From: an uncultured bacterium
Lineage (GTDB): Bacteria > SAR324 > NAC60-12
DNA: 64,000 nucleotides
Assembly: GCA_965662235.1 (NCBI GenBank)
Contig: CBFIGY010000013.1
Coordinates: forward strand, 11,867-75,866
Reading direction: 5' to 3'
Shown one piece after another: positions 13,575 to 54,462 of the stretch; positions within the stretch are counted from its first letter, which is position 1; each line of letters opens with the position of its first letter. The notes below the pieces were generated by a model that saw only the letters and a list, made by a program, of their open reading frames with translations, did not search any database and was not told the origin of the DNA. Position numbers and translations under genes: made by a program.

Positions 13575-16217
13575 GTGTTCCAAGCGTTGGTTGCGTTTCG
13601 TCCTTCCATTCAGCAGCAACTTTTTTTTCTTGTCGTTGTGGTCAGCGGCGTCCTCTGCTTTGCGATCGGAGGATTGGTGCACTTCCGGACCATTCAGTAC
13701 CTCGAAACGGTGCAGACGGAAGACATGGCTCGGCTTCGCTCCCTTGTGGCTCAGGACATTGGTCGATTCTTTGAACAGCACCACCACCCGAACCTTCAGG
13801 TGGGCCTGCCCACTCCCGCCTCACTGACGAAAGCAGGCAACCCGCAGAACCGTCTGCTGCTTCCGGAAACCAACCCCACTGACCCACTGAAACAGTGGGA
13901 AGCGTTCAACGAGTTTGAGACCACGCTGCTGCTCAACCAGCCCGAGGTCGCCCAGGCCCTCAAGCTGGCGCAGCGCGGAGAAAGTCTGCTCATCAAGACC
14001 AGTGTTCCCTCGCAGCCCTTGACCTTCTACCTTCATGTCTTCCGGGACGTTGGCCGCCAGAGCAACCACCTTGGTCTCTACGCCTTCTATCCCTCCGACC
14101 TGACTCGCATCCTCCAAGAGCACCTCAACTTTGAACGTCAGGACAACGGGCTGGTGTTCTGGCTCCGGGACGCTCAGGGGCATCCGCTGGCCTATGCCGC
14201 CGACCCTGGAGAGTTTCATGAATCGACCCCGACGCTTCCGCCCCTTTCGACCTCGGTGAACCTGTTGATTGGGGAGACCCCGATTCAGGTTCCGGGCAGC
14301 ACCTGGACCCTGACCACTGTCCGGGACCGCTCCGAGATCCTAGAACAGGCCTGGGAAATGGTGGCTCCGCTCTGGGGACTGCTCGTTTTTGTCTTCCTCG
14401 TCTTTGCCAGCGGAGGTTTCTTCCTTTCCCGAAAGATTGGCGTCAGCGTCAAAAAGGTGGTGGCCCAGGCAGAACGCCTGTCTGCGGGACGTTACCTCAC
14501 CCCTCAGGATCAGCCCCTGACGCGCCAGAATGAACTCGACGCCATCTGTCAGGCCCTGCTGCAGATCTCCGAGGGGTTGCAGGTGATGGAACACGAAGCC
14601 ACCCGCTTCATTGACGGCGAGGCCACCCGGATTGTCCAACCGCGTTCCTGCGAGGACAGCATGGCCTCCACCTTCAACCGCATGATTGAGGTCATTCACC
14701 AACGAGAAGCCCGGCTGAAGGAACAGGGGGAGCTGAACGAAACCATCCTCAACTCCCTCACCGAGGCCATCTTCATTGTCCGCCCCGATGGACAGATTCA
14801 ACGCGCCAACCCCGTGGGCGCCTCCTGGCTCGAGGGGGCTCCCCACGACGGACCGCAAAACCTGATGAACCTCTTTGCCGATGAACAGGCGCTGCATGAT
14901 CAGGTTCTCAAGCAGGTGCAGCATCAGCTGGAACTCCTTCAGGCGCAACCGGACGCGTTTCAGCAGACTCTGGAGGCCATCCCCCTCCCCATTGTCGGCA
15001 TCGCCCCAGACAGTTCCATTCAGTTGACAAACAGCCGCTTCCTCCAGGCGACCGGCTACCCCGATGGCCTGCAGCAGCAGCCCTTTAGCACCCTTCTGCC
15101 CCCGGCGCTGCAAGGCAAGCATGATCAGTTTGTCCAAGAGTTCTTTGAGTCCCACCAGACGCGTTCCATGGGGCAGGGCATTCGCTTCCCCATCGTTACC
15201 GCCGGTGGCGTCACCCGGCACTTCGAGGTCGCCCTCATCTCGCTGCATAGCCATCGCCCCCTTGCCTTGGCGTTCCTCGCGGACCCTGCCACGCAGGAAC
15301 GTTGGGAGATCTTCCGACTCGTTTTCTTCTCCAGCCTCTTTGAGAAAACCGAGAGCCAGCGCATCCACCGGCTGCAGAAATCCAGCGGAGAAGTCCTTCC
15401 GGTCCTCATCTCCTCTGCGCTTCTCAACGATTCCTCCGGAACCATCACCGGTGCGGTTGTGGCCATGCGGGACCTGACGAGCTTCCAAAAGGTTCAGCGT
15501 CAGCTTCAGCAGTCAGCCAAACTGGCCTCGCTTGGTGAAATGGCCACCGGAGTGGCGCATGAGATCAACCAGCCCCTGACCTTCATCAATGGCGTCCTCT
15601 TCGACCTGGTGGAAGACCTCAGCGAAGGCGTGACGCTGGATCCGGAACCGACGCTGCTGGACCTCAAGGAGAGTCAACGTCAGGTGCAGCGCATCACCCA
15701 GATCATTCAGCACATGCGTCTGTTTGGACGGCACCACTCCGATGCCCGCCACGCCGTCACCCTGAGCGACATTGTCAACAACGCGCTCCTGCTGCTGGGC
15801 AAGAGCCTCCGGAACGCCAACATTGAAGTGGAGGTTGTGCTGCCTGAGGAGGAGGTGCTGGTGCAGGCCAACCCGATCCAGATGGAGCAGGTCCTCATCA
15901 ACCTCCTGCAGAACGTTGTGGACGCCATGACGGAGCTGACCACGCCACGCGAGCAGAAGGTCCGGATTGAGCTCAAGCGGGTGCGCAACAGTGGGGTGCT
16001 GACCCTTGAAGACAACGGCCCCGGCATTCCGGAAGACGTTCAGGAACGCATCTTCGACCCCTTCTTCACCACCAAGGGCCCCAGCAAGGGAACCGGACTG
16101 GGCCTTTCCATCTCCCTCGGCATCATTGAGGCGCACGGTGGGAACCTCCAGTGTCGTTCTCAGGAAGGCACCGGGACCACTTTTGAAATCACCCTTCCCC
16201 TGGGTTTTGAGTCATGA
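13575..16217 (+). CDS. membrane sensor histidine kinase with periplasmic domain, HAMP, PAS repeats, HisKA and HATPase (GTG start)
   Basis: Two TM segments flank a periplasmic region of about 230 aa. H-box [12 protein letters not shown] and G-box LEDNGPGIP...GTGLGLSIS are present. Confidence 0.85.
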
Positions 16218-17938
16218 CGTCTTCCCCTCCCAAGGTGCTGATCATTGATGATGAGCCACTGGTGCGCCGTACCATTGAGCGCGCCCTCCGGAACCTTGAG
16301 GTGCAGCTGCACGCCGCAGAGGATGGGGAGGCCGGGCTTGAGCAGATTCAGACGCTGGCGCCGGATGTGGTGGTTCTGGACCTACGCATGCCCGTCATGG
16401 ACGGTCTGCAGGTGCTGAAGCAGCTGGAGCTCCGCGCCGACTCTCCTCTCAATGTCATTGTCCTCACCGGACATGGCGATGACGATGAGCTCCGGGAGTG
16501 CTACGCCCTGGGCGCCCGGGCCTTCCTCAAGAAGCCCTTCAATCCCATTGAGATGCGGGCGCTGGTGCAGCAAAGCCTCGCCGTCCTGCACGCCCAGCAG
16601 GCCCTGCTGGAGGTCAATCAGCAGCTGGAGCAACGGGTGCTGGAACGGACCCGCGACCTGAACCAGCTCAATGACGCCTTTCGGCGCTTTGTCCCTCGGC
16701 AGTACCTGGAACGGGCCGAGGCGTCTGAGATGGAGGTCTTCCGGCCTGGGCACTTCCATGTGGAGCCGATGACGGTGCTGTTCCTCGACCTCCGGGACTT
16801 CACCAATCTGACGGAACCCCTCACGCCACTGGAGACGTTGGAGTTCCTCAACCGCTTCTTCGGCCTCCTGGTTCCTGTGATTGAGGCACACGATGGTTTT
16901 GTGGACAAGTTCATGGGCGATGGCCTGATGGCCCTGTTCGACCGGGAGGAAGGAGCCGCACATGCCGTGCAGGCAGCGTTGCAGATGCATGAGCAGCTGC
17001 AGCTCCACAATGCCGAGCGTGAGAGCCTGCAGCAGCGTCCGCTGCGGTTTGGAGTGGGCATTCACACCGGACTTGTGGTGGTGGGCACCATTGGATCCGA
17101 GTCCCGCCTCGACTCCACGGCCATCGGCGACACCATCAACTCTGCATCCCGCCTGGAGCAGCTGACCAAGCAGTACGGCAGCTGGCTGCTCATCACCGAA
17201 ACCACCCGCAAGGGGTTGGATCCACAGCACTTCCAGACCCGGATGGTGGACTGCATCCGCTTCCGGGGCAAACGCAACCCGCTCCGCATCTACGAGGTCT
17301 TTGACCACCTCAGCCGACCCGCACAGGACCTCCGGCACCAGCAGGCTCCGCTCTTCAACGAGGGCATGGCGCTCTATCAGCAAGGACAGTTTGAGCAGGC
17401 CCTAGAGGCCTTTGAACGTTGCCTGGCCGTGGATCCGGAGGACACGATTGTGGTGGAGTACCTCCGCCGCTGCCACACCTTCCTCAAGTACCCTCCGGAG
17501 CACTGGGAAGGGATCATGGACGCCAGCGACGAGCTGCTGCAACGGGCCCGACGCCGCACCGCCCCCCGGCTTCCCTTCATGATCCCAGCCTCTGTGCAGC
17601 GGAGCCCTCAACACGTCGTCTCCGCCCAAACCCTCGACCTCTCCCGCTACGGTCTGCGGCTTGCGTTGGAGGAAGCGGCCGGCATCGGCGAGATCCTCAT
17701 GGTCCGGATTGACCCCGATCACCTGCAGATGGAGCTGGGGCTGGGTCGTCCCTTTGAGATGCTCTCACAGGTGGCCTGGACCCGAGAGGCCCCCAGTGAG
17801 GCTCCAACGCTGCCCTGGCAGATTGGAGTGGAGTTTGTCACCCTCGATCCGGAGCAGGAGATCTGGCTCAACCGCGTCCTCATCAACCTCTCCGAAAACG
17901 CGCCTCCTTCCCCCTCTTCCGGAGTGGCTCATGCCTAA
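16214..17938 (+). CDS. response-regulator receiver + class III adenylate/guanylate cyclase + TPR-like segment + C-terminal PilZ-like domain
   Basis: REC motifs: VLIIDDEP, VVVLDLRMP, LTGHGD, LKKPF. CHD motifs: LFLDLRDFT...FVDKFMGDGLMALF...IGDTINSASRLE. C-terminus: RRRTAPRLPF (RxxxR) ... DLSRYGLRL (DxSxxG). The ATGA overlaps the upstream HK stop. Confidence 0.75.
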   Translation: MTSSPPKVLIIDDEPLVRRTIERALRNLEVQLHAAEDGEAGLEQIQTLAPDVVVLDLRMPVMDGLQVLKQLELRADSPLNVIVLTGHGDDDELRECYALGARAFLKKPFNPIEMRALVQQSLAVLHAQQALLEVNQQLEQRVLERTRDLNQLNDAFRRFVPRQYLERAEASEMEVFRPGHFHVEPMTVLFLDLRDFTNLTEPLTPLETLEFLNRFFGLLVPVIEAHDGFVDKFMGDGLMALFDREEGAAHAVQAALQMHEQLQLHNAERESLQQRPLRFGVGIHTGLVVVGTIGSESRLDSTAIGDTINSASRLEQLTKQYGSWLLITETTRKGLDPQHFQTRMVDCIRFRGKRNPLRIYEVFDHLSRPAQDLRHQQAPLFNEGMALYQQGQFEQALEAFERCLAVDPEDTIVVEYLRRCHTFLKYPPEHWEGIMDASDELLQRARRRTAPRLPFMIPASVQRSPQHVVSAQTLDLSRYGLRLALEEAAGIGEILMVRIDPDHLQMELGLGRPFEMLSQVAWTREAPSEAPTLPWQIGVEFVTLDPEQEIWLNRVLINLSENAPPSPSSGVAHA

Positions 17939-21871: not shown

Positions 21872-22795
21872 TTACTTCACCCGGATGCTCTCAAGGTGGA
21901 AGAAGGCCTCCAGTTTATTCGGAAACAGAGCGGCCGTCGCCGTCGCTGGTTGCACAGGGAGGACAACAAACCCGCCTCCAAACGTCTCCGGAATGGGGTT
22001 GCCTTCAAGGGAGTAGGCCACCAGGACCTGACTCAGATCGGTTTCTGGAGGAAGCAACAGGGAGCTTCCCAGGGTGGAGTGCAGCTCCAGGCTCTGATTG
22101 GCGGGCCGATGGGGAACCAGATGGTGGAGCGCGACCACGCCCACATCGGTGCTTTCATTGGGAACCATCACCCCCTTGCGCACCCCCCGGGGGATGGGCA
22201 GGACACGAGCCAGCTTGGCTTGAGGCGCCCGCATCAAGCGCTCACGGCTCCACTCTTCCACAGCGTCTCCCTGCTGAACCTGAACGGCCGGCACCAGGTC
22301 CAGGTGTCCAAAGAGAACCCTCTCGACGTACCAGGTGTAAAGCCCAATGTCTCGATTCTGCTCACTGACCACCTTCAGCGGTCCCCCCCGACGCGGAGAG
22401 ATGGGCTTACCGTTCTGCTCAAACGCGAGCAGGGCGCCCGCCTGGATCAGGTCTTCTAGGGGCTCATGGGTGCTGTAACCGTCATTGGCCAGCATGGTCA
22501 CGTCACCCTCAAATTCAGTCAGGCCGAGCAATTCCGGGAGCTTGGCAATGGGGATGCCGCCAAACTGCTGGGGGCCATCTTTGGCAAAAATGGGATCGGT
22601 GATCTCAATGGTCGTGAGGTACGGACGCAGGTCCGCTTCCTCAACCACCACCTCCTGAACCTCTAGGTTGGCGTTGCGGGCATAAAGACGCAGCTCAAAG
22701 TGGACGGCCTGCGCTGGCGTGGCCATCAGGGCCAGGCCGAACAGGCTCAGCAGCAGGAGGCTCCGGACAAAGCCGGATCGGTGTAACGGATGCAT
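21872..22795 (-). CDS. secreted protein with oxidoreductase-molybdopterin-binding-like fold but no obvious Mo-ligating Cys; tightly coupled upstream of the HK at 20233-21867
   Basis: Signal peptide. GIPIAKLPELLGL...VTMLANDGYSTHEPLEDL...ALLAFEQNGKPISPRRGGPLKVVSE is collinear with the YuiH/YedY/sulfite-oxidase Mo-domain. Only 4 nt separate its stop from the HK start. Confidence 0.5.
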   Translation of the reverse strand: MHPLHRSGFVRSLLLLSLFGLALMATPAQAVHFELRLYARNANLEVQEVVVEEADLRPYLTTIEITDPIFAKDGPQQFGGIPIAKLPELLGLTEFEGDVTMLANDGYSTHEPLEDLIQAGALLAFEQNGKPISPRRGGPLKVVSEQNRDIGLYTWYVERVLFGHLDLVPAVQVQQGDAVEEWSRERLMRAPQAKLARVLPIPRGVRKGVMVPNESTDVGVVALHHLVPHRPANQSLELHSTLGSSLLLPPETDLSQVLVAYSLEGNPIPETFGGGFVVLPVQPATATAALFPNKLEAFFHLESIRVK

Positions 22796-22807: not shown

Positions 22808-24301
22808 TTAAGGGGAAACAACAGGAAAGATGATCTGTACCAAAGTGCCGTGGTTCTCCTTGCTCTGGAGATGAAAGACGCCATCTTGGTCGGCAATGAT
22901 GCTCCGGCAAATGGAAAGCCCGAGTCCGGTGCCCTTGCCGGCCTCTTTGGTGGTAAAGAAGGGGTCTTCAATCCGCTGAAGGAGCTTTTTCGGAATTCCG
23001 GGGCCTGTGTCTTCCACTTCTAGGTAAACCTGATCCTCGTTGCGGTACACCCGGAGGATGAGTTGTTTGGGGCCGTTGAAGTGCTGGAAGGCGTCTCGGG
23101 CGTTGCTGACCACCTCCACCAGCACATGCTGCACCTGCCCAGGAATGCAGCGGATGGTGCACGGCTCATCGGTGTACTCTTCGAGCAACTCAATGCCTCG
23201 TCCCACAAACTGCTGACGGTGCAGGTCTGAAGTGGCTCGGGCGAGGTTCCGGGGGTCTTCTTCCACAAAGTCGGTCTGATTGGAGACCTGAGCAAAGTGC
23301 CGCAGTTGCTGAATGACGACGGCAATCCGGTCCACGTGTTCGTCAATGCGTTCCAGCGAGCCCCGGACCTTCTCAGGGCGTTTTTCCAGCTGCCCCATGG
23401 CCCCACTGACCGAGAGCTTGATGATGCCGAGCGGGTTGTTGATTTCATGGGCCAGTCCGGTGGCAATGCTTCCCAGCGACGAGAGCTTGGTGCTCTGCAC
23501 CAGCTGACGCTGCAGGGCCACGCTGTCTCGCTGGTGCCGGACCAAGCGGGCGTGATTTTCCAGACGGGCCAGCATCTCTTCCCGGGAGAAGGGCTTGACG
23601 AGGTAGTCGTTGGCGCCGGCCTTGAGGGCCTCAATGACCACCGAGTACTCTCCTGCTGCCGTGAGGATGATCACCGGCAGTTCCGGACGGTCGAGGGGTC
23701 CTCGAATGGTCCGGCACAGCTCAATGCCGTCCATCTTCGGCATCACAAAGTCCGTCACCACTAGGTCCACCGGGTGCTGCTCAAGCAGGGCAATCGCCTC
23801 TTCCCCGTTGGCAGCATCCAGCACCCGGGCGCCGCGCTTGCGGAGGATGCGGGCCAGGATGGTTCGGATGGAACGGGAATCGTCCACCACCAGGATGTTG
23901 ATGTCCTCCAACGAGCTTTCATCTGCCAGCAGCTCCTCCAGGTACTCCTTGAGGCTTCCTGGGGCAAAGGGCTTGCGGATGAACTCCACGGCGCCAGCGT
24001 GGAAGGCCCGGGCGTTCAGGTTGGGCTCCTCTTTGCTGGAAATGACGATGATCGGAATGTGCGAACACTGCGGGTAGTAGCGGATGCGCTGGATGGTTGT
24101 GATGCCGTCAATCTCCGGCATCTCCACGTCCATGGTGATGGCGTCGGGCTCCAGCTCAATCGCCAGGCTCATGGCCTCGCGACCACTCTCAGCCTCATAA
24201 ATTTCCGCATTGGCCAGGCTCGAGAGTTCCTCGCGGATGATCTTCCGGGAGCTGGGGCTGTCATCAACAATCAAAATTTTCAGGGGGACCATCTTTCTCA
24301 T
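22808..24301 (-). CDS. hybrid histidine kinase with two N-terminal receiver domains (REC-REC-HisKA-HATPase)
   Basis: REC1: ILIVDDSPS...ITMDVEMPEIDG...KPF. REC2: ILVVDDSRS...VVTDFVMPKMDG...LVKPF. H-box GLAHEINNPLGII. HATPase EVEDTGPGIP...GTGLGLSI. Confidence 0.85.
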   Translation of the reverse strand: MRKMVPLKILIVDDSPSSRKIIREELSSLANAEIYEAESGREAMSLAIELEPDAITMDVEMPEIDGITTIQRIRYYPQCSHIPIIVISSKEEPNLNARAFHAGAVEFIRKPFAPGSLKEYLEELLADESSLEDINILVVDDSRSIRTILARILRKRGARVLDAANGEEAIALLEQHPVDLVVTDFVMPKMDGIELCRTIRGPLDRPELPVIILTAAGEYSVVIEALKAGANDYLVKPFSREEMLARLENHARLVRHQRDSVALQRQLVQSTKLSSLGSIATGLAHEINNPLGIIKLSVSGAMGQLEKRPEKVRGSLERIDEHVDRIAVVIQQLRHFAQVSNQTDFVEEDPRNLARATSDLHRQQFVGRGIELLEEYTDEPCTIRCIPGQVQHVLVEVVSNARDAFQHFNGPKQLILRVYRNEDQVYLEVEDTGPGIPKKLLQRIEDPFFTTKEAGKGTGLGLSICRSIIADQDGVFHLQSKENHGTLVQIIFPVVSP

Positions 24302-24355: not shown

Positions 24356-25594
24356 TCAGTCCCAGAGCGTTTGCTTGGCAAAAAAATCAAGAATCTGGTT
24401 GAGCAGGGTCTGCTCCTCCGGAGCAACGTAAAGGAACTCAATGCCGAACTCCCCCCGCCCTTCCACGGAACGGTTCCAGATGGTGGTGCCAATCACCTCC
24501 AGCGGAGCCAGATCGGGAATCACCGGACGTCCCTGGTCCCAGTACACCGTCATCCGCACCGTCACTCCCACCGGAAGCGACTGCTCCGACTTGACCCGTG
24601 CCCCGGAGCGGGACAGGTCCAGCAGCTCTCCTGTGGAAAGGACCGTTTGCTTCTGGGTGCTCCGGCGCTCCTCAAACGTCACCGGGACCAGGACGTTGTA
24701 GCGCTCGGCTCGGCTGGTCCGGGCATTGAAGAAACGCTCTTCTGCTTCACAGAGCACCTCCTCGGAGTGCATGCCCTCCGGAGGGTTCTCCCGGAAGTAG
24801 TTGCAGCGCTTGATGTAGTTGATCGTCACCGGATCTTCAGGAAAACGCTCCAGACACTCCCGAAACGGGTGCAGCGCCTCCTCAAAGAGCCACGCCTTGT
24901 ACAGGGCCATTCCCTGAAAGAGCAGCATCTGCGTCTCACGCTTCACGGCCTGCAGCGCCTCAGAGTCGGTGGCAAACACCTCATACACATTCACCAGCCG
25001 CTGCCGGCCCCGAACCCGGAGCGTGTCCACCTCCCGGACCGCCTGGGCCTGCGTCTTCAGGGCGGCATGCGTGTGATGAGAAATGAGGATCCGGGAGCCA
25101 AACGACTTGGTCAGGCTTTCCAGACGTGCAGCCAAGTTGACGGCATCTCCCACCACCGAAAGGTGCTTGCCGCGCAGGTTCCCCACCCAGCGGTGTCCGA
25201 CAATCACAGGACCGGTGTTGATGCCAATGCCCGCCCGGAACTGCCGAGCCCGAGGGCGGGCGTTGAACTCATCCAACCGTTGCTGCATGGCCACTGCCGC
25301 TTGGACGGCATGGTCAGCGCTGAACTTTCCCTCAAAGAGGGCCATGAGGGCGTCGCCCATGAACTTGTCCACGACACCATGATGCCGCTCGACCTCGAGG
25401 ACCAGGGCATCAAAGATCGCATTGAGCATGCGGAACCCCGTCTTCGGGGTGGTGGACTCGACATGCGTGGTGTAGCCACGGATGTCCAGAAACAGAATGG
25501 ACAGCTTCATCTCGCGCAGAGGAGCGTTGTCTTCGCTCAGGGCGTCGGTGCTGGCAATCCAATGGAGTCCTCGTTTCCTAGAAGAATTCGACAT
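24356..25594 (-). CDS. class III adenylate/guanylate cyclase + TPR-like segment + C-terminal PilZ-like domain (paralogue of 16214-17938 without REC); start uncertain
   Basis: CHD: LSILFLDIRGYT...VVDKFMGDALMALFEG...VGDAVNLAARLE. C-terminus: DLSRSGARV (DxSxxG), beta-rich GIEFLYVAPEEQ. Confidence 0.7.
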   Translation of the reverse strand: MSNSSRKRGLHWIASTDALSEDNAPLREMKLSILFLDIRGYTTHVESTTPKTGFRMLNAIFDALVLEVERHHGVVDKFMGDALMALFEGKFSADHAVQAAVAMQQRLDEFNARPRARQFRAGIGINTGPVIVGHRWVGNLRGKHLSVVGDAVNLAARLESLTKSFGSRILISHHTHAALKTQAQAVREVDTLRVRGRQRLVNVYEVFATDSEALQAVKRETQMLLFQGMALYKAWLFEEALHPFRECLERFPEDPVTINYIKRCNYFRENPPEGMHSEEVLCEAEERFFNARTSRAERYNVLVPVTFEERRSTQKQTVLSTGELLDLSRSGARVKSEQSLPVGVTVRMTVYWDQGRPVIPDLAPLEVIGTTIWNRSVEGRGEFGIEFLYVAPEEQTLLNQILDFFAKQTLWD

Positions 25595-27372
25595 CGTCTA
25601 ATAGGTCTTCCTCGCTCGCCTCCGCTGGTGCGGTCTCCGCTTGCTTCTCAGCCGGGTCCCAGCCCTCAAACAGTCGACTCAGGACCTCCTGAAAGGGTTC
25701 CTGCAGACAGGACTGATGAATGGTCCGTTCCACATCTCGGGAGTAGAGGTGTTCCAGCTCTGAGAGATCCAGGGGGGAGGGAACCTCGGTTTCCGGTTCC
25801 AGCGTGTGTTCCAGCTCGGCGTGGAGGAGTTCAATGAGTTGATACGTGAGGCGGACGCGGAGTTCCACCTGTTCCCCAAAGGAAAGATTTTCCAACAAGG
25901 TGAGGATTCCGCCAGCTAATTTCCACGTCTCCCGTGACACGGCCCCCGTCCGGGCCAGCATGGCCACGCTTGCCTCCCGGAATCCCTGCAGGCGCTCATT
26001 GAGCGATGCCCGGGTCCGGCCTACGGATTCGAGCTGCTGATCCAGAGACTGCTCCAGCGCTTCCTGGAAGCCAGCAATCAGCTCCAGCCCCTCCTGCAGG
26101 GTGGAGACTTCTCGAGACAGCAGGGTCTGTGCTTCCTCAGAACGGTGGATGACCTCATGGCTCAGTTTTTCCAGGTGCAGCGACTGCTCTCCGGCATCAT
26201 TCGGAAGCAGCATCGCGTTCACGGACATGCGGCGCAGGTCGTTTCCAATGTCCTCAATGGACTCCAGGTGCTCCCGGGTCAGGCGCAGCCGTGCATTGAC
26301 CTCCTCCATGGCCTCCAGCACACGCCGCGTCACCCCTTCACTGCGTCGGAGCGTCTGCAGCAGCGCCTGCAGGGCCAGGTCAAGCTGCCGGACGCCGGCA
26401 CTCAACGGACCTTCCAGCCCCAGGATTTCTCCGACTCGGGAAACCTGATTCTGCGCCCGCTCCGAAATGTCCCGGAACCGGGCGTCCACCTGCTGCTCCA
26501 CCTCATCGGTCTTGTGGAGCACATACGCCAACTGCCCCAGCTGAATTTCCAGACACTGCTTGGCCCAACGCCGGGACGCCACCGTCCCGTCTTCCAGGCG
26601 CGTTCCTGCGAGGAGGAGGGCCTGAGAAACGTGCTCCATCTGCTGACGGGTGATGTCATGGAACTGCACCGCCATCACCACCTGGTTGAGGTAGGGGACG
26701 ATTTCCTCTGAGTCCTTGCGGATCCAGCTGCAGGAGCTGACCACCTTGCGCATCAGGCTGCGCATCTCCCGGACCCCATCTTCCACCTGACGCTGCAGGG
26801 CCTCTGCTTCCAGAGGCATCAGTTCGCTCAGGCGGACCTGCCGCATGACGGTAAAGAACTCCTCCTGTGCCTGTTCCGCGCTCCAGGTCATGGAAAGCCG
26901 GGTGTCGGCCATGTGTCCGGCGAGGGTGGTGATGCCCTCAGACAGCTGAACAAAAGCCCGGGGGTGCGAATGCTGCTGCCCCTGCAGGTTCATGAGGACC
27001 CCGATGATGCGGACCGCGTGGGCAAGGCGCATGAGGAAGCCCCCCACCTGTTCCAGAGACTGGGTCCGTCCGGTCAGGTCGTGCAGACTGGGCAGGGTCC
27101 CGGTGAGCAGGGTGGTGCTGTCTCCCACCTCCCGTCCTCCTTCCCGGAACAGCGTCTCTACCTCATCAAGCTGCCACCCCTCGCCCGACTGAATCCGGGC
27201 TTCGACGTCGCCCACTTCAGCCGAGTTGTTCTTGAACTGGGTGGAGACGCCGTAGATCTGGTCTCCGAGCAAGAGGAAGTCCTGCTCCGTTTCCGCAGAG
27301 ATGCTCATCAGTCCCTCTGCAGCCTGGCGCAGGAGGGCGGTTCCGGAGGTCAAGTCAAAGGAGGCGGTCATG
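25578..27372 (-). CDS. coiled-coil protein, possibly a divergent soluble chemoreceptor-like protein (start placed at MTASFDL)
   Basis: Q/L/E-rich heptad-rich sequence. Segment RRMSVNAMLLPNDAGEQSLHLEKLSHEV weakly recalls the MCP tip [21 protein letters not shown]. Acidic C-terminus EEDLLDDVEFF. Confidence 0.4.
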
Positions 27373-27378
27373 GTCTCT

Positions 27379-27999
27379 TCAATCCCACAAATCGACATCC
27401 ACAGGACGCTGCGGACGTTGCTGTTTCTCTCGTTCACGCTGAACCTCCCGGATGAAGCTCCGGTCGCGCTCAACGACTTCAGACACTTCCGTACGCTGGA
27501 CCTTCCGGACGTACACGGAATAGTCCCGCGAGTCAAAGTAAATGACGCGGCCAAACACCCCCTCTAGGTCGGCCGCCACCACCGGAATGCGGTCCTCTTG
27601 AAGGAAGTTCACCACAAAGCGGGCGTTCCGGCCCCCAACGTCCAGCATGGGCGCCGCGTGTTGGTTGATCTGAAGCACCGCCGCGCCGCCAAAGACCTTG
27701 GCCTTGAGGTGCTTGCGCTGGGCGCCCAGTTTCATCATCCGGTTGATGAGCAGTTCCATGGCGTTGATGCCGTATCGTCCAGCATCACTCTTGAGCATGA
27801 GGTCCTGACTGCTGTACGACTGCGTGCTCAGCAGAAAGTGGTTCATGCCCACAATGTGATTGACCGGATCGTACAAACAGGCCGAGACACACGACCCCAG
27901 CAAGGTGATGAGCACCACGTCTTTTTCAGACGCATGATACTCACCCGGCTGTACGCGTATCTTCATGCGACTGTCGAACAGTTTCGGAGCTCTTGACAT
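27379..27999 (-). CDS. cheD: chemoreceptor glutamine deamidase CheD
   Basis: ITLLGSCVSACLYD (CheD catalytic Cys motif) ...VGMNHFLL...KVFGGAAVL. Confidence 0.8.
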   Translation of the reverse strand: MSRAPKLFDSRMKIRVQPGEYHASEKDVVLITLLGSCVSACLYDPVNHIVGMNHFLLSTQSYSSQDLMLKSDAGRYGINAMELLINRMMKLGAQRKHLKAKVFGGAAVLQINQHAAPMLDVGGRNARFVVNFLQEDRIPVVAADLEGVFGRVIYFDSRDYSVYVRKVQRTEVSEVVERDRSFIREVQREREKQQRPQRPVDVDLWD

Positions 28000-28020
28000 G
28001 TAAAAAAACCTTTCCGTATT

Positions 28021-29100
28021 TTAAGATCCGGAGTGTGCTTTCCGGAGCACGGCGACGGGAATTGAATCCAGTGGCAGCACCTGATGGGCGCCTCCCAGTT
28101 CAATGGCTTCTCGGGGCATCCCAAAGACCACACAGCTTTCCTCATCCTGGGCAAAGTTGTAGGCTCCGGCCTCAGCCATTTCCTTCATGCCCTTGGCGCC
28201 GTCATCGCCCATGCCGGTCAGGATGACCCCGAGGGCATTCTTGCCCGCGTACCGGGCGGCAGAGCGAAAGAGGACATCCACCGAGGGACGGTGTCGGGAG
28301 ACCAGGGGGCCCTCACGGACCTCCACAAAGTATCGGGCGCCGCTGCGTTTGATCAGCGTGTGGTGGTTGCCGGGGGCAATCAGGGCCTGCCCAGGCAGCA
28401 CACTATCGTTGTTCTGAGCCTCCTTCACCGTGATGCGGCAGAGGGAGTTCAGCCGTTCCGCAAAGGACCGGGTGAAGTGCTCTGGCATGTGCTGCACCAC
28501 CACAATGCCCGGACACTGCACCGGCATCTGTTCCAGAAACACCCGCAGGGCCTCGGTGCCTCCGGTGGAGGCTCCCACCACAACCACCTTTTCTGTGGTC
28601 TGCACCATGGCGTGGCTGCTCGCTGCCGGCAGCACAGCGTCTGCGGTCAGCTTCGGAGTCACCGTCATGGAGCCAGCTCCCGGAGGACGCCTCATGCGAG
28701 AAAGCTTTGCTGAAGCAGCCGCCCGGACCGCGTCTCCCATGAGGATGCGGGACTCTTCAAAGAAGTCTCGGACCCCAATCCGGGGCTTGAAGATCACCTC
28801 CACGGCACCATACTCCAGAGCCTTCAGCGCAGTCTCCGACCCCCTTTCCGCCAGGCTGGAGCAGATGATGACCGGAAGCGGGTGCTGGGTCATGATCTTC
28901 TTCAAGAACGTCAACCCATCCATGCGGGGCATCTCCACATCCAGAATGATCACATCCGGAACCTTGCTGCGCAGACGCTCGGCCGCCACAATGGGGTCCG
29001 GTGCCAGCACCGAGACCTTGATATCGGGGAGCGAATCCAACACCTCCTTCAACCCTTGACGCACCAGGGCGGAGTCATCAACGATCATCACATCAATCAT
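28021..29100 (-). CDS. cheB: protein-glutamate methylesterase/response regulator CheB
   Basis: REC: [13 protein letters not shown]...[12 protein letters not shown]. Methylesterase: [17 protein letters not shown]...[15 protein letters not shown]...GMGDDGAKG. Confidence 0.9.
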
Positions 29101-29116
29101 GACCTTCCTTCAACAC

Positions 29117-30583
29117 TCATAAGAGCCACACCCCTTTCGGGAGTTCCATCCGCAGCACCGTGCCGCGTCCAATGCGAGACGAGGCGCTCAGCTGCCCACC
29201 ATGTTCTTCTACAATGCCATAGGCGACTGCCAGTCCCATTCCGGCACTCCGTCCAACCTTGGTGCTGAAAAATGGTTCAAACACCCGTGGCAGGTGTTCT
29301 GACTCAATGCCACAGCCGGTGTCCTCCACCTCCAGCACCACCTGTTCTTCGGTCTCAAAGCTCCGGAGCCTCAGCTTCCGGGTCTCCTGCGCCTGCATCG
29401 CCTCTAGGGCGTTGAGGAGCAGCTGAAACACGGCCAGCTCCAGGGCGGCTGAGTCACAGATCACCTCCGGCTCGGGGTCAACCCACTCCTGCTCAATGGC
29501 AATGGCGTCCTCCTCAAAGCGAGCCCGGAGCAGCTCCAGGGCATGCTTAACGATGCTCTGCAGCCCCACCCGCTCCCGCTCCGTCCGGGGGTTGCGTCGG
29601 GAGAAGGCCTCCATGCTTTCCAGCAAGAACCGGATGTTCTCCAGTGCCGCCTGAACCGACTGCCCCTCGGATTCCTCAAGGCAGGGGGCTTCCTTCAACA
29701 CGTTGTTCAGGACCTGCAGCGAGTCGTCCAGCACCTCAGACAGCGACGACGAAAGGGTCCGCAAGGCGCTCATCAGCGACGAGAGCTGCTCCTGCTTCCG
29801 CTCCTGCAGCTGCTGACGCCTCAGATGGATGAGCCGGACCTCGTTCTTCAGACGGGCCTTCAGCTCTTCCCGGGAGAACGGTTTGGTGAGAAAATCCGAG
29901 GCGCCATTCCGCAGCGCCTCAATCATCGACTCCTGCTCATTGAGCGAGGTCAGGACCAGGATCGGCGCCTCCTGGTAGTGCTCATTTTCGCGGACCTGCT
30001 TGCAGAGTTCCAGGCCATCAACGTGCGGCATGAGGAGGTCCGTGAAGAGGATGTCCACCGGATGATGTCGCAGCAGCTGCAGGGCCTGCCGTCCGTCTTC
30101 GGCTGTCAGAACGCTGGCGCCATTGTGTTCCAGCAGCCGCTGCAGGAGGTTCCGCACCGATGGGGCATCATCCACGACCAGGCACCGGATGCTTTCCAGA
30201 AAGCGTTCCTGCTCCAGCAGCTCCCCGGCATAGGCCGCTAGGCTTCCTTCCAGAAAGGGCTTGAGGAACAGCTCCACCACTCCGGTTTCAAACGCCCGCT
30301 CTCGGATGGAATCCGACTCGGCAGAGGTGATGAGGATGACCGGGATGTGCGCGGTCTCCGGCTGCTGCCGAAGCTGCTGCACAAACGCCAGCCCGTCCAT
30401 GCCTTCAATCTCCAGATCGGTGGTGATCAGGTCCGGCACCCATTCCAGTGCCAGCGCCAGCGCTTCATCGGCAGAAGCCGCCTCCTCGACGGTCACTGCC
30501 TCCAGCGTCTCCAACTCCATCCGGATGAACACCCGGGCCGATGCGCTGTCATCGAGCACCAAAATGCGTCGAGGGGCTGTCAT
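29117..30583 (-). CDS. hybrid histidine kinase with two N-terminal receiver domains (REC-REC-HisKA-HATPase), paralogue of 22808-24301
   Basis: REC1: ILVLDDSASARVF...LITTDLEIEGMDG...LKPF. REC2: CLVVDDAPSVR...ILFTDLLMPHVDG...LTKPF. HATPase: VEDTGCGIESEHLPRVFEPFFSTK...GMGL. Confidence 0.85.
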   Translation of the reverse strand: MTAPRRILVLDDSASARVFIRMELETLEAVTVEEAASADEALALALEWVPDLITTDLEIEGMDGLAFVQQLRQQPETAHIPVILITSAESDSIRERAFETGVVELFLKPFLEGSLAAYAGELLEQERFLESIRCLVVDDAPSVRNLLQRLLEHNGASVLTAEDGRQALQLLRHHPVDILFTDLLMPHVDGLELCKQVRENEHYQEAPILVLTSLNEQESMIEALRNGASDFLTKPFSREELKARLKNEVRLIHLRRQQLQERKQEQLSSLMSALRTLSSSLSEVLDDSLQVLNNVLKEAPCLEESEGQSVQAALENIRFLLESMEAFSRRNPRTERERVGLQSIVKHALELLRARFEEDAIAIEQEWVDPEPEVICDSAALELAVFQLLLNALEAMQAQETRKLRLRSFETEEQVVLEVEDTGCGIESEHLPRVFEPFFSTKVGRSAGMGLAVAYGIVEEHGGQLSASSRIGRGTVLRMELPKGVWLL

Positions 30584-31419
30584 AACCGCTTGTAGGTCGC
30601 AGGCGCCACAATCCGCAACGGCAGATCAAACTCATGCAGGGTTTCCGAGTGCCCCACAAACAGGTACCCGCCACGCTTCAGGTGCGCACAGAGCCGCTGC
30701 AGCACCTGATACTGAGTTGGTTTGTCAAAGTAGATCATCACGTTCCGGTAAAACGTCACATCTGTGGAGTAGGGCATCCGGTACTGCTCATCCATGAAGT
30801 TGAGCGCAAAGAACTCCGCCCGCGACCGCAGCTGCGGGACCACCCGGACCTTTGGCAGGTCGCGGTTCTTGCTCCTCAGGAAGTACCGCTTGAGCAGAGG
30901 CAGCGGAATCCCGGTGGTTCGGTTTTCTGAATAAATGCCCTGGAGCGCCGTCTGTACGGACCCGCTGGAGACATCGGTGCCCAGAATGGAGTAGGGGTGC
31001 TTGGTCGGGACCGGGTGCTTGCGGAAGTACTCCTCCATTACCATTCCCAACGTGTACACCTCCTCTCCGGTGGAGCACCCGGCGCTCCAGATCCGCAGAG
31101 GGTACGTCCGTCCCGGAATGCGGACGAGTTCTGGAAGCACCACCTCGGCCAGGTACGTGAAGTGGTCGGGCTCCCGGAAGAAGTCCGTCTTGTGCGTGGT
31201 GACCAGGTCCACCATGAACGCCAGCTCTTCCACCGCTTCATCCTCAAAGAGGTGGTCGAGGTACTGTCCAAAGGAGGTCATGTGCAGCGCCCGGAGGCGT
31301 TTCTGGAGGCGGGTTTCCAGCATCACCCGCTTTGTCGCTGGCATCTTGACCCCCAGGTTCTCTTCAATCCAGGCGCCCAGGACCTTAAAATCAGCGGTTT
31401 GTAAGTGAATAAAACTCAT
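30580..31419 (-). CDS. cheR: chemotaxis protein methyltransferase CheR
   Basis: TTHKTDFFREPDHF...RIWSAGCSTGEEVYTLGMV...YLFVGHSE. Confidence 0.9.
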   Translation of the reverse strand: MSFIHLQTADFKVLGAWIEENLGVKMPATKRVMLETRLQKRLRALHMTSFGQYLDHLFEDEAVEELAFMVDLVTTHKTDFFREPDHFTYLAEVVLPELVRIPGRTYPLRIWSAGCSTGEEVYTLGMVMEEYFRKHPVPTKHPYSILGTDVSSGSVQTALQGIYSENRTTGIPLPLLKRYFLRSKNRDLPKVRVVPQLRSRAEFFALNFMDEQYRMPYSTDVTFYRNVMIYFDKPTQYQVLQRLCAHLKRGGYLFVGHSETLHEFDLPLRIVAPATYKRL

Positions 31420-31443: not shown

Positions 31444-33984
31444 TCAGAGGGACTCCTGAGACGGCTGAGAAGGCTCAAACGAGCTCGGTAAGTCATCCAC
31501 CCACGCCTGCAACGCCTCCTGACTGGCCTGTGGGAGCTCAAGAAATCGGTTGACGTTACGGTCCTTGAGCATGTCCAAGGGGACGGTAAACTCGGTGATC
31601 AGACGATCATCGGTGTTGCGTTCCAGGGGGTTCAGCGTCTTGAGGTACCGGACCACTTCATGGTCCCCCATCAGGAACAGCTGAGGTAAGAACGTTTCAG
31701 GCTTCAGGCCAAAACGCTTCAAGGTGGCCGCCACCTGCGGACGGGAGGCACGACGGACCACATCGGCGTACTTGAGTCGGAAGTCGGGAGACTTGGAAGC
31801 AATCATCAGCAGGTCTCCCGGAACCGTCGAGCGCCACAGGGACACCTGGGGAAACACGGAACGGAGCGTGTAGATGAGGATCTTCAGGTTCCGGGGAGAC
31901 ATGTGGTAGGCCGGAAGCCACTGGGCCAGCATGCCGTTGGCCGACAGGCTCTGCTCCACCTGCTCGTACCATTCCAGCGAAAGCAGACTCGACTCTCCCT
32001 TGATCCAGGGATTCGAGGGCTGTGAGATGATCAGGTCAAACGGTTCCTTCTCACTGATGAGGAAGCTCCGGGCATCCCGAGCCACCACCGTGGAGCGGGC
32101 GTCATGAAGAACACCGTGGTTGTAGCGCTCAAAGAAGGAGGCTGCCCGGACCACAGCAGGCGAGATTTCCGCGGTGATCAGGGTTTCTGGATCGTGCAGC
32201 AACGCTGTGCCACTGGTGATGCCACTGCCCAGGCCCACCACAAACACGCGCTCCGGATTGGGGTGCAGGATCATCGGAAGCGAAGCCAACAGGGTCTGGG
32301 TGGGCATGTCGCCACTTCCCCCGGCACTCGCATCCACCTTGCCGTTGATCATCAGGCTCCGTTTGCCCTCGGCACTGTCCATGACCGCCACGGTTGCCAC
32401 TGGGCCCATCTCGTAGTAGACCATCTCAAACTTCCGCATCGCGGCTTCCCACACCAGCGACTGCTTCGCCTGCGACACATCCTCTCGCTCCAGGGCCATC
32501 AGGTTGTAGTTCCGGGAGGAGTCGTAGTACTGGTTGGCATAGAGGTAAACACCACTGCTCATCAACCGAGGCGACCACGGCTGATTCAGCAACAGGCTCA
32601 ACGCCGCCACAAAGGTCGTGGGAATCGCCCACCGGAGCCGAAGCCCCGGGGTCCACTCCGGGTGACTCATGAGGATCGCTAGGCCGATGGCAAAGCTGAT
32701 CACCGCTCCCAGCGTGACGGTGCCCTGCATGCCCATGCCGGGAACCAGGACCACTCCGGCGAGCGCGGCTCCGATCATGGCGCCCATTGTGTTGACGCCG
32801 AACACACGGCCCACGGCCTTGCTCGGAGAACGCGTGTTGGCCCCCAGTGCCGCACAGACCGTGGGGAACATCATTCCCATGGCAATCGTGGGGACCAGCA
32901 TCACCAGTGCGGCCAAAAGGAAACGCAGCACCTGCACGCCTCCCCAGGTGTCCAACAGCTCGCGGTGCAGCGACAGGTACAGGAACGGCAACCGCTCCAT
33001 GAGGATGTTTGCAACGAGCACCGATACGGCCAGCACCAGCTGCAGGAGCACATAGAGGGTCCGGGGCGAAAGACGTTGGTCCAGGTGCCGGTAGGCGTAG
33101 CTCCCAATGGCAATGCCCAGGAGAAACGTTGCCAAAATGGTGGTGAAGGCATACGACGTGGTTCCCAACAGCATGCTCAGGGTCCGGTTCCAGGCAACCT
33201 GGTACCCGAGCGCAACCGCGCCAGAGAGGCCGTAGCTCCAGAAGATGAGCCGAGCATTGAAGGAAAGACGGGGCAGCGGCTCCTCATGCAGCGGCAGGGT
33301 CGAATCGGCTCCCCCCTTGCGCTGGTGCAGCATCCAGAATCCCACCCCAATCAGGAGGTTGAGGGAGGCGGCAATCCAGGTGGTCCCAGAGTGTCCCAAA
33401 AACCGGAGCAGCAGGTACCCGGTCACCAGGGTTCCGGTGAGGGCCCCAAAGGTGTTGGCAGAGTACAGCCGCGCCGTGTTGACCGCCAGCAGACGCTCAG
33501 TCCGGGTCAGGTACCGGCTCATCAGCGGCAGCGTTCCTCCCATCAAGAACGTCGGTGGCGCCAGCAGCAGCACCCCAAAGAAGAAAGGCACCAGGGTCCG
33601 GGACTCGGCCAGGAGCGGAAACTGCTGATACAGCATCGCATGCAGCGCCTGGGCGCCCTCCACCAGAAAGGGGAAGAGGAGGGCGTAACCGCCAATCCCC
33701 CCTTCGAGGAAGGCATACGTTCGAGCCAGCTGAGTTTCCCCCCAGAGGTCCCCCTGCTTCCCAAACCACCAGCCCCCCCAAGCCAGCCCCCCCATGAAGC
33801 CCGTCAGGATCACCGTCACTGCGGTTGTGGACGACCCTAAAAAGTTGGTCAGGGTCCGGATCCAGATCACCTCATACGCGAGGCTGGCGGCCCCGGAACC
33901 AAAGAAGAACAGCGTCAGCCACTGCTCAAGCTTCAGGCCCAAGAGGGTCGCATTGAGGGGGGTGCGGGCGGGGGAGGGTGTCAT
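31444..33984 (-). CDS. fused polytopic membrane domain + spermidine synthase-like (aminopropyltransferase fold) protein
   Basis: About 12 predicted TM helices in the N-terminal 450 aa. C-terminal PABS-like fold: ERVFVVGLGSGITSGTAL...DLIISQPSNPWIKGESSLLSLEWYE. Confidence 0.75.
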   Translation of the reverse strand: MTPSPARTPLNATLLGLKLEQWLTLFFFGSGAASLAYEVIWIRTLTNFLGSSTTAVTVILTGFMGGLAWGGWWFGKQGDLWGETQLARTYAFLEGGIGGYALLFPFLVEGAQALHAMLYQQFPLLAESRTLVPFFFGVLLLAPPTFLMGGTLPLMSRYLTRTERLLAVNTARLYSANTFGALTGTLVTGYLLLRFLGHSGTTWIAASLNLLIGVGFWMLHQRKGGADSTLPLHEEPLPRLSFNARLIFWSYGLSGAVALGYQVAWNRTLSMLLGTTSYAFTTILATFLLGIAIGSYAYRHLDQRLSPRTLYVLLQLVLAVSVLVANILMERLPFLYLSLHRELLDTWGGVQVLRFLLAALVMLVPTIAMGMMFPTVCAALGANTRSPSKAVGRVFGVNTMGAMIGAALAGVVLVPGMGMQGTVTLGAVISFAIGLAILMSHPEWTPGLRLRWAIPTTFVAALSLLLNQPWSPRLMSSGVYLYANQYYDSSRNYNLMALEREDVSQAKQSLVWEAAMRKFEMVYYEMGPVATVAVMDSAEGKRSLMINGKVDASAGGSGDMPTQTLLASLPMILHPNPERVFVVGLGSGITSGTALLHDPETLITAEISPAVVRAASFFERYNHGVLHDARSTVVARDARSFLISEKEPFDLIISQPSNPWIKGESSLLSLEWYEQVEQSLSANGMLAQWLPAYHMSPRNLKILIYTLRSVFPQVSLWRSTVPGDLLMIASKSPDFRLKYADVVRRASRPQVAATLKRFGLKPETFLPQLFLMGDHEVVRYLKTLNPLERNTDDRLITEFTVPLDMLKDRNVNRFLELPQASQEALQAWVDDLPSSFEPSQPSQESL

Positions 33985-34071
33985 GAGAATGCTGTTTCGT
34001 CCGTTTCAGGGAAGGGGGAAAAGGAAAGAGGAGGGAAGCTCCCTCCCCCAGTCAAGGTGCTAGAGGAAGCC

Positions 34072-34581
34072 CTACTGATCTTCAGGCAGGGCGACTTCGC
34101 TGAGGTTCTGAGCCAGGCTCAGTTCATCCAGGGTGAAGATCTTTTCCAGATCCAGGATGGTGATGAAGCGCTCATCGCGCTTTCCCATCCCCCGGATGAA
34201 GTCGATGTGCAGCCGCGTTCCCAGCCGTGGAGGCGGGGTGATGTCCTCGGTGTCGAGGTCGATCACTTCCTGAACCGAGTCGGCCAGGGCTCCCAGCATG
34301 GTGCTTTCGCCGTCAATGGTGACTTCAATGACAATGACGCTGGTGTTGACCGTTTTTTCCACACGGCCGATGCCAAACTTCAGGCGCATGTCCACCACCG
34401 GCACCACGCTGCCCCGGAGGTTGATGATGCCCCGCATGAAGTCCGGCGTTTTCGGCACCTTGGTCACACTGTCAAACTGCAGAACCTCCCGGACGTTGCT
34501 GATGGAAAACGCATAGATTTCCTGGTCCAGCACAAAGGTCAGGTACTGATTGGAGATCGTCGACTGATCTTCTTCGCTCAT
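34072..34581 (-). CDS. cheW: chemotaxis coupling protein CheW
   Basis: YLTFVLDQEIYAFSISNVREVL...RGIINLRGSVVPVVDMRLKFG. Single CheW domain, 169 aa. Confidence 0.9.
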   Translation of the reverse strand: MSEEDQSTISNQYLTFVLDQEIYAFSISNVREVLQFDSVTKVPKTPDFMRGIINLRGSVVPVVDMRLKFGIGRVEKTVNTSVIVIEVTIDGESTMLGALADSVQEVIDLDTEDITPPPRLGTRLHIDFIRGMGKRDERFITILDLEKIFTLDELSLAQNLSEVALPEDQ

Positions 34582-36827: not shown

Positions 36828-37118
36828 CTAGCCTCTCACCCAATTCAAGTAACCAAAGCCCCCCTCCTCAAGTGCCTCACCCAAGGCACCAGGCAGGGGT
36901 CGCTCCAGTTGCAGGTCAATGCCCTTGCTGCGGGCGAGCAAGTAAGCGGCATGGATCAGCTGCACGCCCGCAACATCGGCCCGCTCCATGGAACCCCATG
37001 CGATCCGGATCTCCTCCGGATTCTGCTGAAAGGCATTCAGGAGTGTTTGTTGATGACGTGCCACTGTGTGGATGGTCAGGTCCCCCTGCAGCGAGACCGT
37101 CTGCGGATTGGAACTCAT
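36828..37118 (-). CDS. STAS-domain protein (anti-sigma-factor-antagonist-like), translationally coupled to the cheA upstream
   Basis: 96-aa SpoIIAA-like pattern [12 protein letters not shown]...[23 protein letters not shown]. Its start overlaps the stop of the cheA at 37115 by 4 nt. Confidence 0.65.
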
Positions 37119-54258: not shown

Positions 54259-54462
54259 AATTCCTTTTTTTGAGACTGTTTGGAAAAATTTCCTCCAGCC
54301 TACCGCATCACCGACACAGCACAAGTAACCATGCGTATCGGTCTTTTTCCAAAACCGATGCAACATTGCTTGAATGTTTTCCATCCTTCTCCTACTTTCT
54401 TGAGACCTATTGATCCCAAATTGTCTCACACCTGCCATCCATTTGTTACCGGGGACCCCTTC

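Follow-up and report, generated by a model that had tools for sequence, protein, structure and literature searches.

In the Wsp system, a che-type operon encodes its own second-messenger synthase, the REC-GGDEF protein WspR, which is phosphorylated on its own receiver (REC) domain and makes cyclic di-GMP (c-di-GMP). The adenylyl cyclase CyaB of Pseudomonas aeruginosa provides the cyclic AMP (cAMP) output of the Pil-Chp chemosensory system and is a precedent for Che-like control of cAMP. Its N-terminus is a membrane MASE2 domain, it lacks PilZ, its gene lies outside the che operon, and PilG, FimL, and FimV mediate its control. The PilZ protein MapZ links c-di-GMP to chemotaxis through CheR1. 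Here, we analyze a gene encoding a protein of 412 amino acids (aa), in which a class III cyclase homology domain (CHD) is followed by a TPR-like linker and a PilZ domain. It is part of a che gene string of an uncultured bacterium (SAR324; NAC60-12) on a stretch of 64,000 nucleotides (nt) of contig CBFIGY010000013.1 (assembly GCA_965662235.1, positions 11,867 to 75,866). This whole stretch will be referred to as the window, and coordinates are those of the window unless another locus is named.

Like WspR, the 412-aa protein is encoded in a che operon with conserved synteny, but it lacks a receiver of its own that could serve as a target of CheA, and it should make cAMP instead of c-di-GMP. Like CyaB, it is assigned to the class IIIb adenylyl cyclases, and the catalytic domain of CyaB (3r5g) is among its best matches to solved structures. 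The canonical PilZ receptors BcsA, PlzD (VCA0042), PP4397, and MapZ (PA4608) have the barrel and the [D/N]hSxxG motif in common with the 412-aa protein, but they carry RxxxR where it reads RxxR, and a fusion to a nucleotide cyclase occurs in none of them. The same core of domains is found in the REC-CHD-TPR-PilZ cyclases, represented by the second such protein in the window (encoded at 16214-17938), by P0006 and P0007, and by ~35 more clusters. They are homologous to the 412-aa protein along the full length, with 30-40% identity, and have the same class IIIb catalytic residues. They differ by an N-terminal receiver (or a PAS, GAF, STAS, or NIT domain), an FVPxQFL coiled-coil, and a canonical RRRxxR motif, and those of their loci that were examined are located outside che operons.

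Cross-talk between c-di-GMP and cAMP is physiologically well documented, for example in Pseudomonas. A PilZ domain within the cyclase itself would yield an enzyme that reads one of these messengers and writes the other, and no such enzyme was found in the literature searched. Likewise, we found there neither a description of a cyclase-PilZ fusion nor an experimental characterization of the REC-CHD-TPR-PilZ cyclases. The preprint by Galperin and Chou lists fusions of PilZ to REC, GGDEF, EAL, HD-GYP, MCPsignal, and CheC, and the word "cyclase" is absent from it (10.1101/814665). Class III cyclases and PilZ domains are known kinds of modules; what is new is their combination in a receiver-less protein encoded within a che operon, in which PilZ forms a putative regulatory tail of the cyclase.

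Domain architecture and active site of the 412-aa protein

A Pfam search of the 412-aa protein returned Guanylate_cyc (PF00211) at residues 30-200 (E=2.1e-20, 73.5 bits, cutoff 21.9) and PilZ (PF07238) at residues 295-402 (E=3.3e-9, 37.4 bits, cutoff 22.5). No Response_reg match was obtained for this protein, and only 26 aa precede the CHD. The region between the two domains gave no match to a TPR profile at E<=0.01 in the protein itself, but it aligns residue for residue with a segment of the in-window paralog that passes the Pfam TPR_1/TPR_2 thresholds, and it was modeled as helical hairpins with four helices at aa 212-291. Therefore, we refer to this region as TPR-like. The AlphaFold2 (AF2) model of the protein, for which 41 family sequences served as input, is confident (pLDDT 88.5, pTM 0.86). 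The PilZ part forms a barrel with strands at residues 299-310, 319-327, 331-336, 345-350, 365-377, and 380-389, followed by a helix at 392-409, mostly with a pLDDT of >85. The layout of CHD, TPR-like linker, and PilZ without a receiver, as proposed in the initial annotation of the window, is thus borne out, and the two PilZ segments that it had singled out, RTSRAER (aa 292-298) and DLSRSG (aa 326-331), are indeed present. The whole gene is under purifying selection, with a ratio of nonsynonymous to synonymous substitution rates (dN/dS) of 0.10 relative to an 88% identical ortholog (CHD 0.08, linker 0.07, PilZ 0.135).

The substituted catalytic residues that would mark an inactive cyclase were not found at five key positions: the active site is intact at D37, D81, K77, N153, and R157. 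Both metal-binding aspartates, Asp37 (FLDIRGYT) and Asp81 (DKFMGD), are conserved in the family alignments, as is Lys77, and the transition-state residues Asn153 and Arg157 (NxxxR) are invariant in 41 sequences. Within the receiver-less clade described below, both metal-binding Asp as well as the Asn and the Arg are invariant. Pairwise alignment placed Lys77 on the substrate-binding Lys of the adenylyl cyclase OaPAC and Ser146 on a Thr of the same enzyme. Position 146 is the second one that defines the substrate. The window protein shares the Ser at this position, a conservative change, with the two orthologs closest to it; almost all other members have Thr.

Among solved structures, OaPAC, bPAC, CyaC, and P. 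aeruginosa CyaB, all of them adenylyl cyclases of class IIIb, match best in fold (Foldseek, E down to 2.7e-15, root mean square deviation [rmsd] ~2.1 Å) and sequence, with OaPAC (4yus) matching the CHD at E=2.7e-15 and an rmsd of 2.1 Å over 192 columns. The nearest single sequence match in the PDB is the guanylyl cyclase Cya2. The product should nevertheless be cAMP and not cGMP, because Lys77 matches the Lys of OaPAC whereas Cya2 has a Glu at this position. A Lys-bearing phytochrome fusion derived from Cya2 (6fht) and OaPAC read xDKFxGD or xTKFxGD at the Lys77 site. Of the two products that had been considered initially, cAMP is thus the predicted one, and cGMP was discarded on account of Lys77. 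Judged by its residues, the 412-aa protein is very probably an active adenylyl cyclase.

A rare cyclase family and a conserved gene pair

An exhaustive profile search of 1.84 billion representatives yielded 132,112 cyclase matches. In only ~40 of them (~40 clusters) did the match run from the CHD through the PilZ domain. Pfam detected Guanylate_cyc in all 41 aligned family members, PilZ in 40 of 41, and an N-terminal receiver in 28 of 41; the remaining members carry PAS, GAF, STAS, NIT, or cNMP-binding modules, or nothing. Receiver-bearing relatives are annotated as SAR324 cluster bacterium. The combination of CHD and TPR-like tail without PilZ occurs in many more proteins, and the PilZ domain is therefore best regarded as an add-on to a common CHD-TPR unit. 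Among the matches listed for the JGI metagenomes, there were only CHD+TPR-like relatives, which are <=38% identical over residues 27-274; further close relatives or che-linked members were not among them. With its ~40 clusters, the family is so small that a few proteins would suffice to test it.

The receiver-less proteins comprise five sequences (the window protein, P0002, P0003, P0004, and P0005) with 42-100% identity. In a neighbor-joining tree, they form one clade beside receiver-bearing proteins such as P0006, P0007, and P0127. The in-window REC-CHD-TPR-PilZ protein is placed far from this clade, together with its own 86% identical ortholog, and the two in-window paralogs are 35% identical over the shared core. 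A recent duplication, for which a phylogeny had been suggested as a check, was rejected because of this low identity and the distant branches; the split is old. Tree position and alignments suggest that the che-embedded form descends from a rare sensor-CHD-TPR-PilZ family, most members of which have an N-terminal receiver, and that it arose by losing the receiver together with the FVPxQFL coiled-coil that links it to the CHD in the others.

In four out of four other clade loci, an ortholog of the partner gene at 25578-27371 is located directly upstream of the cyclase-PilZ gene (L001, 88%; L003, 62%; L005, 43%; L006, 42%). In the clade loci, the two genes overlap by 14-20 nt or lie 8 nt apart. 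Where contigs are long, cheR-cheB-cheD are found upstream of the pair and a REC-REC kinase gene downstream of it; downstream of the pair in L005, there is a receiver with a degenerate GGDEF domain instead. The window, L001, and L003 show the che context in full. Metagenome project PRJEB17505 is the source of the protein identical to that of the window and of the 62% ortholog, and one 43% ortholog comes from a sponge metagenome. The co-occurrence of PilZ-cyclase genes with che genes in other genomes holds for the clade (L001, L003) but not for the family members P0006, P0007, P0137, and P0152, which are encoded outside che clusters. From this conserved arrangement, a functional tie of the cyclase to the che cluster and the partner appears likely.

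The 597-aa partner was modeled as an all-helical protein with long hairpins and a hairpin turn at aa 389-393 (AF2). On its own, it gave no convincing match: a phmmer search against the PDB returned nothing useful, and the AF2 model matched structures of methyl-accepting chemotaxis proteins (MCPs) weakly. A profile of 31 partner relatives, in contrast, matches MCP cytoplasmic domains (2ch7, E=2.7e-24), and Pfam MCPsignal was detected in 28 of the 31. The MCP kinship thus becomes visible through the family profile, since searches with the single sequence and the model gave little. The hairpin-tip segment of the partner aligns with the family consensus IExIGxxxxLIALNAxxKAAxTG. The Pfam CheZ match of the partner is weak (E=0.005) and below the cutoff, and 10 of the 31 family members give weak CheZ matches at E<=0.01. 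Residues Q236, H238, D239, R242, and Q243 are invariant across the 31 family members. At its C-terminus, the family has the consensus D-x-G-D-N-V-E-L-F, with E595 and F597 invariant and D592 nearly so; this acidic end may resemble the CheY-binding tail of CheZ and the pentapeptides of MCPs. A YxxxxERxxH block and a D-x-E-[FL]-F C-terminus are likewise conserved. As a side observation, the partner family can be recognized by an invariant QFHDITRQQxEH, two MCP-tip-like segments, an RYTMxSERxIH block, and a DNVELF C-terminus.

The invariant core QFHDITRQQ, which is found throughout the family, can be read as A-x-x-F-H-D-x-x-x-Q. The A-x-x-F-x-D-x-x-x-Q of the partner resembles the CheZ motif AXXFQ-DXXXQ (PMC7750401); it is the subthreshold Pfam score that separates the partner from CheZ. 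With soluble MCPs the partner shares the MCP-type coiled-coil hairpin, but in the cyclase-linked clade the tip has decayed beyond detection by Pfam MCPsignal, with the CheZ-type motif and the tail being kept. Judged from its sequence, the partner is a degenerate soluble chemoreceptor that keeps a putative phosphatase motif of the CheZ type (DxxxQ), and the family as a whole looks like an MCP/CheZ hybrid. The partner might be an MCP of class 40+24H, a class that the one paper found only mentions by name. Its initial description as a cryptic MCP-like protein was correct with respect to the MCP part and incomplete with respect to the CheZ-type motif.

The wider partner family was found in 329 species genomes, mostly of Desulfobacterota and magnetotactic Nitrospirota, where the gene is usually located immediately upstream of cheY-cheA. 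None of the 79 loci with distant partner homologs (L012-L090) contains a cyclase (CHD) or this PilZ domain. The pairing of partner and cyclase is therefore specific for the clade, and a general tie between the wider partner family and cyclases was dismissed.

The PilZ site and possible roles of the module

The PilZ profile of the family matches only solved PilZ domains (BcsA, PlzD, PP4397, and PA4608). Despite the weakness of these matches (E 0.005-0.5), the motifs align in register, which fixes the motif numbering. Counted back from the invariant Arg298, the family consensus of motif I is R(-5)R(-4)R(-3)xxR(0). The window protein has Arg at -6, -3, and 0 (R292, R295, and R298), Thr at -5, and Ser at the canonical position -4. 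The Arg at -4 is kept in 33 of 41 family members, but none of the five receiver-less proteins has it (they read S, S, H, K, and K at this position), whereas each of them has the Arg at -3. Accordingly, the canonical RxxxR in the N-terminal loop of PilZ, which the initial annotation had considered to be slightly shifted, is absent from the 412-aa protein and reads RxxR; motif II is intact. Divergence is faster in the PilZ domain than in the CHD (83, 50, and 24% versus 92, 71, and 55% identity in the clade comparisons). R295, R298, D326, S328, and G331 are invariant in the clade, although the lowest of these PilZ values, that between the window protein and L005, is only 24%. This invariance, together with the dN/dS of 0.135, argues for a site that is still in use. 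From its sequence, the odds that this site retains the binding of c-di-GMP or a close relative seem roughly even.

Our preferred reading, to which we give somewhat less than even odds, is that the 412-aa protein makes cAMP and serves a non-canonical Che pathway as an accessory or output module, with a coiled-coil partner and a nucleotide input through PilZ. The soluble class IIIb adenylyl cyclase would act as a homodimer and make cAMP, and its regulatory parts would be limited to the C-terminal TPR-like linker and the PilZ barrel. The place of the receiver would be taken by a fixed, probably translationally coupled pairing with the ~600-aa coiled-coil partner in the che operon. The cyclase would dock on this partner, so that cAMP synthesis follows the state of the Che pathway, and the PilZ site, which is under selection as RxxR...DLSRSG, would most likely still bind, in a variant register, c-di-GMP or a closely related ligand and set the gain of the cyclase. 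Domain identity, catalytic residues, fold, rarity, gene pairing, and purifying selection were observed here; that the enzyme is active, that it forms a physical complex, that it binds a ligand, and in which direction it is regulated are predictions of this model. The receiver-less branch raises the question of how a chemosensory cluster controls an enzyme without a receiver, and the partner with its CheZ-type motif is a concrete candidate for this role. In a more specific form, a dedicated complex of cyclase and partner would allow the chemosensory array or the pool of phosphorylated CheY (CheY-P) to set the cAMP level without a receiver on the enzyme, with the variant RxxR PilZ domain letting c-di-GMP gate the output. 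We regard this form as unlikely; if true, one protein pair would physically join Che signaling, c-di-GMP, and cAMP.

Several observations weigh against the preferred reading. The first Arg of RxxxR is replaced by Ser in the window protein and by H or K in orthologs, and its loss or mutation normally abolishes binding in canonical PilZ proteins. The link to c-di-GMP is weakened for the che-embedded member because of this altered motif I, and the paralog at 16214-17938 is therefore the cleaner case for control by c-di-GMP. A motif search and Pfam scans of the larger open reading frames (ORFs) in the 64-kb window revealed neither a diguanylate cyclase or phosphodiesterase (GGDEF, EAL) nor a cNMP-binding or CRP-type gene. 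In L005, the gene downstream of the 43% ortholog (L005 2600-3496) encodes a receiver fused to a GGDEF domain with the signature NKSTF. This protein is probably not a diguanylate cyclase and hence no local source of c-di-GMP, since NKSTF replaces GGDEF. A cascade from Che through REC-GGDEF and c-di-GMP to the PilZ-cyclase, which this neighbor had brought to mind, was discarded for the same signature. Moreover, position 146 is a Ser in place of Thr or Asp, and the clade consists of five sequences only, all of them from uncultured organisms. The evidence for a physical complex with the partner is the overlap of the genes, and it is the gene context that would suggest cAMP as an output of the pathway.

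Alternatively, the PilZ domain could have given up nucleotide binding and act as a pure protein-docking adaptor, comparable to the docking PilZ domains of Xanthomonas and Pseudomonas, that connects an otherwise constitutive cyclase with either the CheZ/MCP-like partner or a REC protein. The absence of the first RxxxR Arg from the entire clade and the faster divergence of PilZ relative to the CHD are in line with this idea, and some PilZ domains are indeed known to lack the motifs and not to bind c-di-GMP (Galperin and Chou preprint, 10.1101/814665). But such non-binding domains usually lose both motifs, whereas here D326, S328, and G331 as well as two Arg of motif I are invariant, and we consider a mere adaptor rather unlikely. 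The same invariance and the intact motif II would also fit a strong form of the model of the initial annotation, in which the cyclase is gated by c-di-GMP and its cAMP is the main chemosensory output, a role comparable to that of WspR in Wsp. The position of the gene inside a che operon, its conserved synteny, and the canonical RRxxxR of most family members point in the same direction. However, motif I of the che-embedded protein itself is non-canonical, and since the receiver is missing, there is no direct route for phosphorylation from CheA to the cyclase. In addition, the cluster encodes other candidate outputs (the STAS/RsbW-like/PP2C partner-switching set and several hybrid kinases), and no cAMP receptor was found by Pfam among the window ORFs scanned. 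In this strong form, the model is therefore improbable.

Could the cyclase be a mere passenger, that is, an ordinary cytosolic enzyme that lies in the che region by chance? The family members outside che clusters (P0006, P0007, P0137, and P0152) would be compatible with such a scenario, which is nonetheless very unlikely: cyclase and partner genes stay paired over the whole range from 100% to 42% identity, overlapping or 8 nt apart, the pair always comes after cheD on long contigs, and no terminator-like site flanks the gene. It is even less probable that the protein is a guanylyl cyclase or a catalytically dead pseudo-cyclase, as might be supposed from the unusual Ser146 and from Cya2 being the closest PDB sequence match. 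Against this stand the Lys at position 77, which OaPAC and 6fht also carry and for which Cya2 has Glu, the presence and clade-wide invariance of the metal-binding Asp pair, the Asn, and the Arg, and the dN/dS of 0.08 for the CHD.

The che gene string and other features of the window

The coordinates of the features are collected in Table 1. In the direction of transcription, the minus-strand gene string begins with PP2C, a REC-RsbW-like kinase, CheA2, STAS, a 490-aa coiled-coil protein, a CheW-like protein, CheY, CheA1, MCP, and CheW. It continues with a fused MFS/spermidine-synthase-like protein, CheR, REC-REC-HATPase, CheB, CheD, the 597-aa protein, and the cyclase-PilZ protein, which is followed by a REC-REC histidine kinase (HK), a molybdopterin-oxidoreductase-like protein, another HK, and REC. 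Pfam assignments of the neighbors thus agree with the initial placement of the gene inside a che string, between an MCP-like gene upstream and a REC-REC kinase gene downstream. Around the cheR-to-cheD block (27379..31419), the genes of the string are tightly spaced, with gaps of -4 to 24 nt. The last 17 nt of the 597-aa gene overlap with the beginning of the cyclase gene, and the hybrid kinase gene begins after a gap of 54 nt.

Table 1. Positions of the cyclase-PilZ gene, its partner, and further features in the window
Feature	Position	Strand	Basis or remark
Receiver-less cyclase-PilZ gene, 412 aa	24356..25594	-	ATG start; stop codon 24356-24358; ORF translation
Class III cyclase homology domain (CHD), aa 27-206	24977..25516	-	Pfam, alignments, Foldseek
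Helical TPR-like linker, aa 207-291, four predicted helices	24722..24976	-	AF2 secondary structure, paralog alignment
Core TPR-like motif of linker, aa 224-255	24830-24925	-	
PilZ domain, aa 292-412, six-strand barrel and C-terminal helix	24359..24721	-	Pfam PF07238, AF2
PilZ motif I region RTSRAER, aa 292-298	24701..24721	-	Reads RxxR, not RxxxR
PilZ motif II DLSRSG, aa 326-331	24602..24619	-	Fits canonical [D/N]hSxxG
Partner gene, 597 aa, all-helical degenerate soluble MCP-like protein with CheZ-type motif	25578..27371	-	
CheZ-like signature AVQFHDITRQQMEH of partner, aa 234-247	26631..26672	-	Fits A-x-x-F-x-D-x-x-x-Q
Degenerate MCP hairpin-tip segment IEDIGNDLRRMSVNAMLLPNDAGE of partner, aa 372-395	26187..26258	-	
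Acidic C-terminal peptide EEDLLDDVEFF of partner	25581..25613	-	
REC-REC-HisKA-HATPase hybrid kinase, downstream	22808..24301	-	Pfam; kept downstream in L001, L003
cheD	27379-27999	-	Pfam
cheB	28021-29100	-	Pfam
REC-REC-HATPase	29117-30583	-	Pfam
cheR	30580-31419	-	Pfam
cheW	34072-34581	-	Pfam
MCP	34652-36784	-	Pfam
cheA	37115-39322	-	Pfam
cheY	39322-39684	-	Pfam
Distant paralog REC-CHD-TPR-PilZ, 574 aa	16214..17938	+	Canonical RRRTAPR and DLSRYG

Between cheW and cheR, the window encodes an 846-aa fused protein of the major facilitator superfamily (MFS)/spermidine-synthase-like type (NCBIfam MFS_SpdSyn; 31444-33984, minus strand), which is conserved in L001. Two unrelated loci, L050 and L055, have similar genes inside their che clusters. 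In the window, the gap between cheW and the MFS/spermidine-synthase-like gene contains a strong terminator-like hairpin, GGGGGAGGGAGCTTCCCTCCTCT, with a T-rich tail behind it (34027-34049, minus strand), which may divide the string into two transcription units or serve as an attenuator.

The 490-aa coiled-coil protein (40616-42088, minus strand), encoded between the STAS and the CheW-like gene, has a second degenerate MCP-tip-like segment, EVRFLAMNAALETSRKQ, and belongs to no Pfam family. The genes of a partner-switching set surround that of the second CheA (42455-44833): STAS (42088-42441), the REC-RsbW-like kinase (45030-45911), and a PP2C/SpoIIE phosphatase (45908-47110), all on the minus strand. 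This arrangement suggests a gene-regulatory output of the same supercluster. At the other end of the string, a 307-aa protein with a partial molybdopterin-oxidoreductase domain (21872-22795, minus strand) is encoded between the REC-REC kinase and a further histidine kinase. This protein, which is also conserved in L001, may function as a sensory subunit.

With respect to the receiver-bearing relatives, P0006 and P0137 represent at least two cyclase-PilZ paralogs in one assembly (L091, L007; GCA_028281495.1), and the presence of several copies points to a lineage-specific expansion. The gene for P0152 (L093) is preceded by REC-HK and REC genes and followed by a HAMP-PP2C gene, an arrangement that echoes the operon of the REC-bearing paralog in the window. 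Finally, a DUF6279 gene is located directly after, and overlaps with, the gene for the REC-CHD-PilZ protein P0007 in two SAR324 assemblies (L009/L010 11709-12617); in the window, a DUF6279 gene is found ~30 kb away (53392-54438, minus strand).

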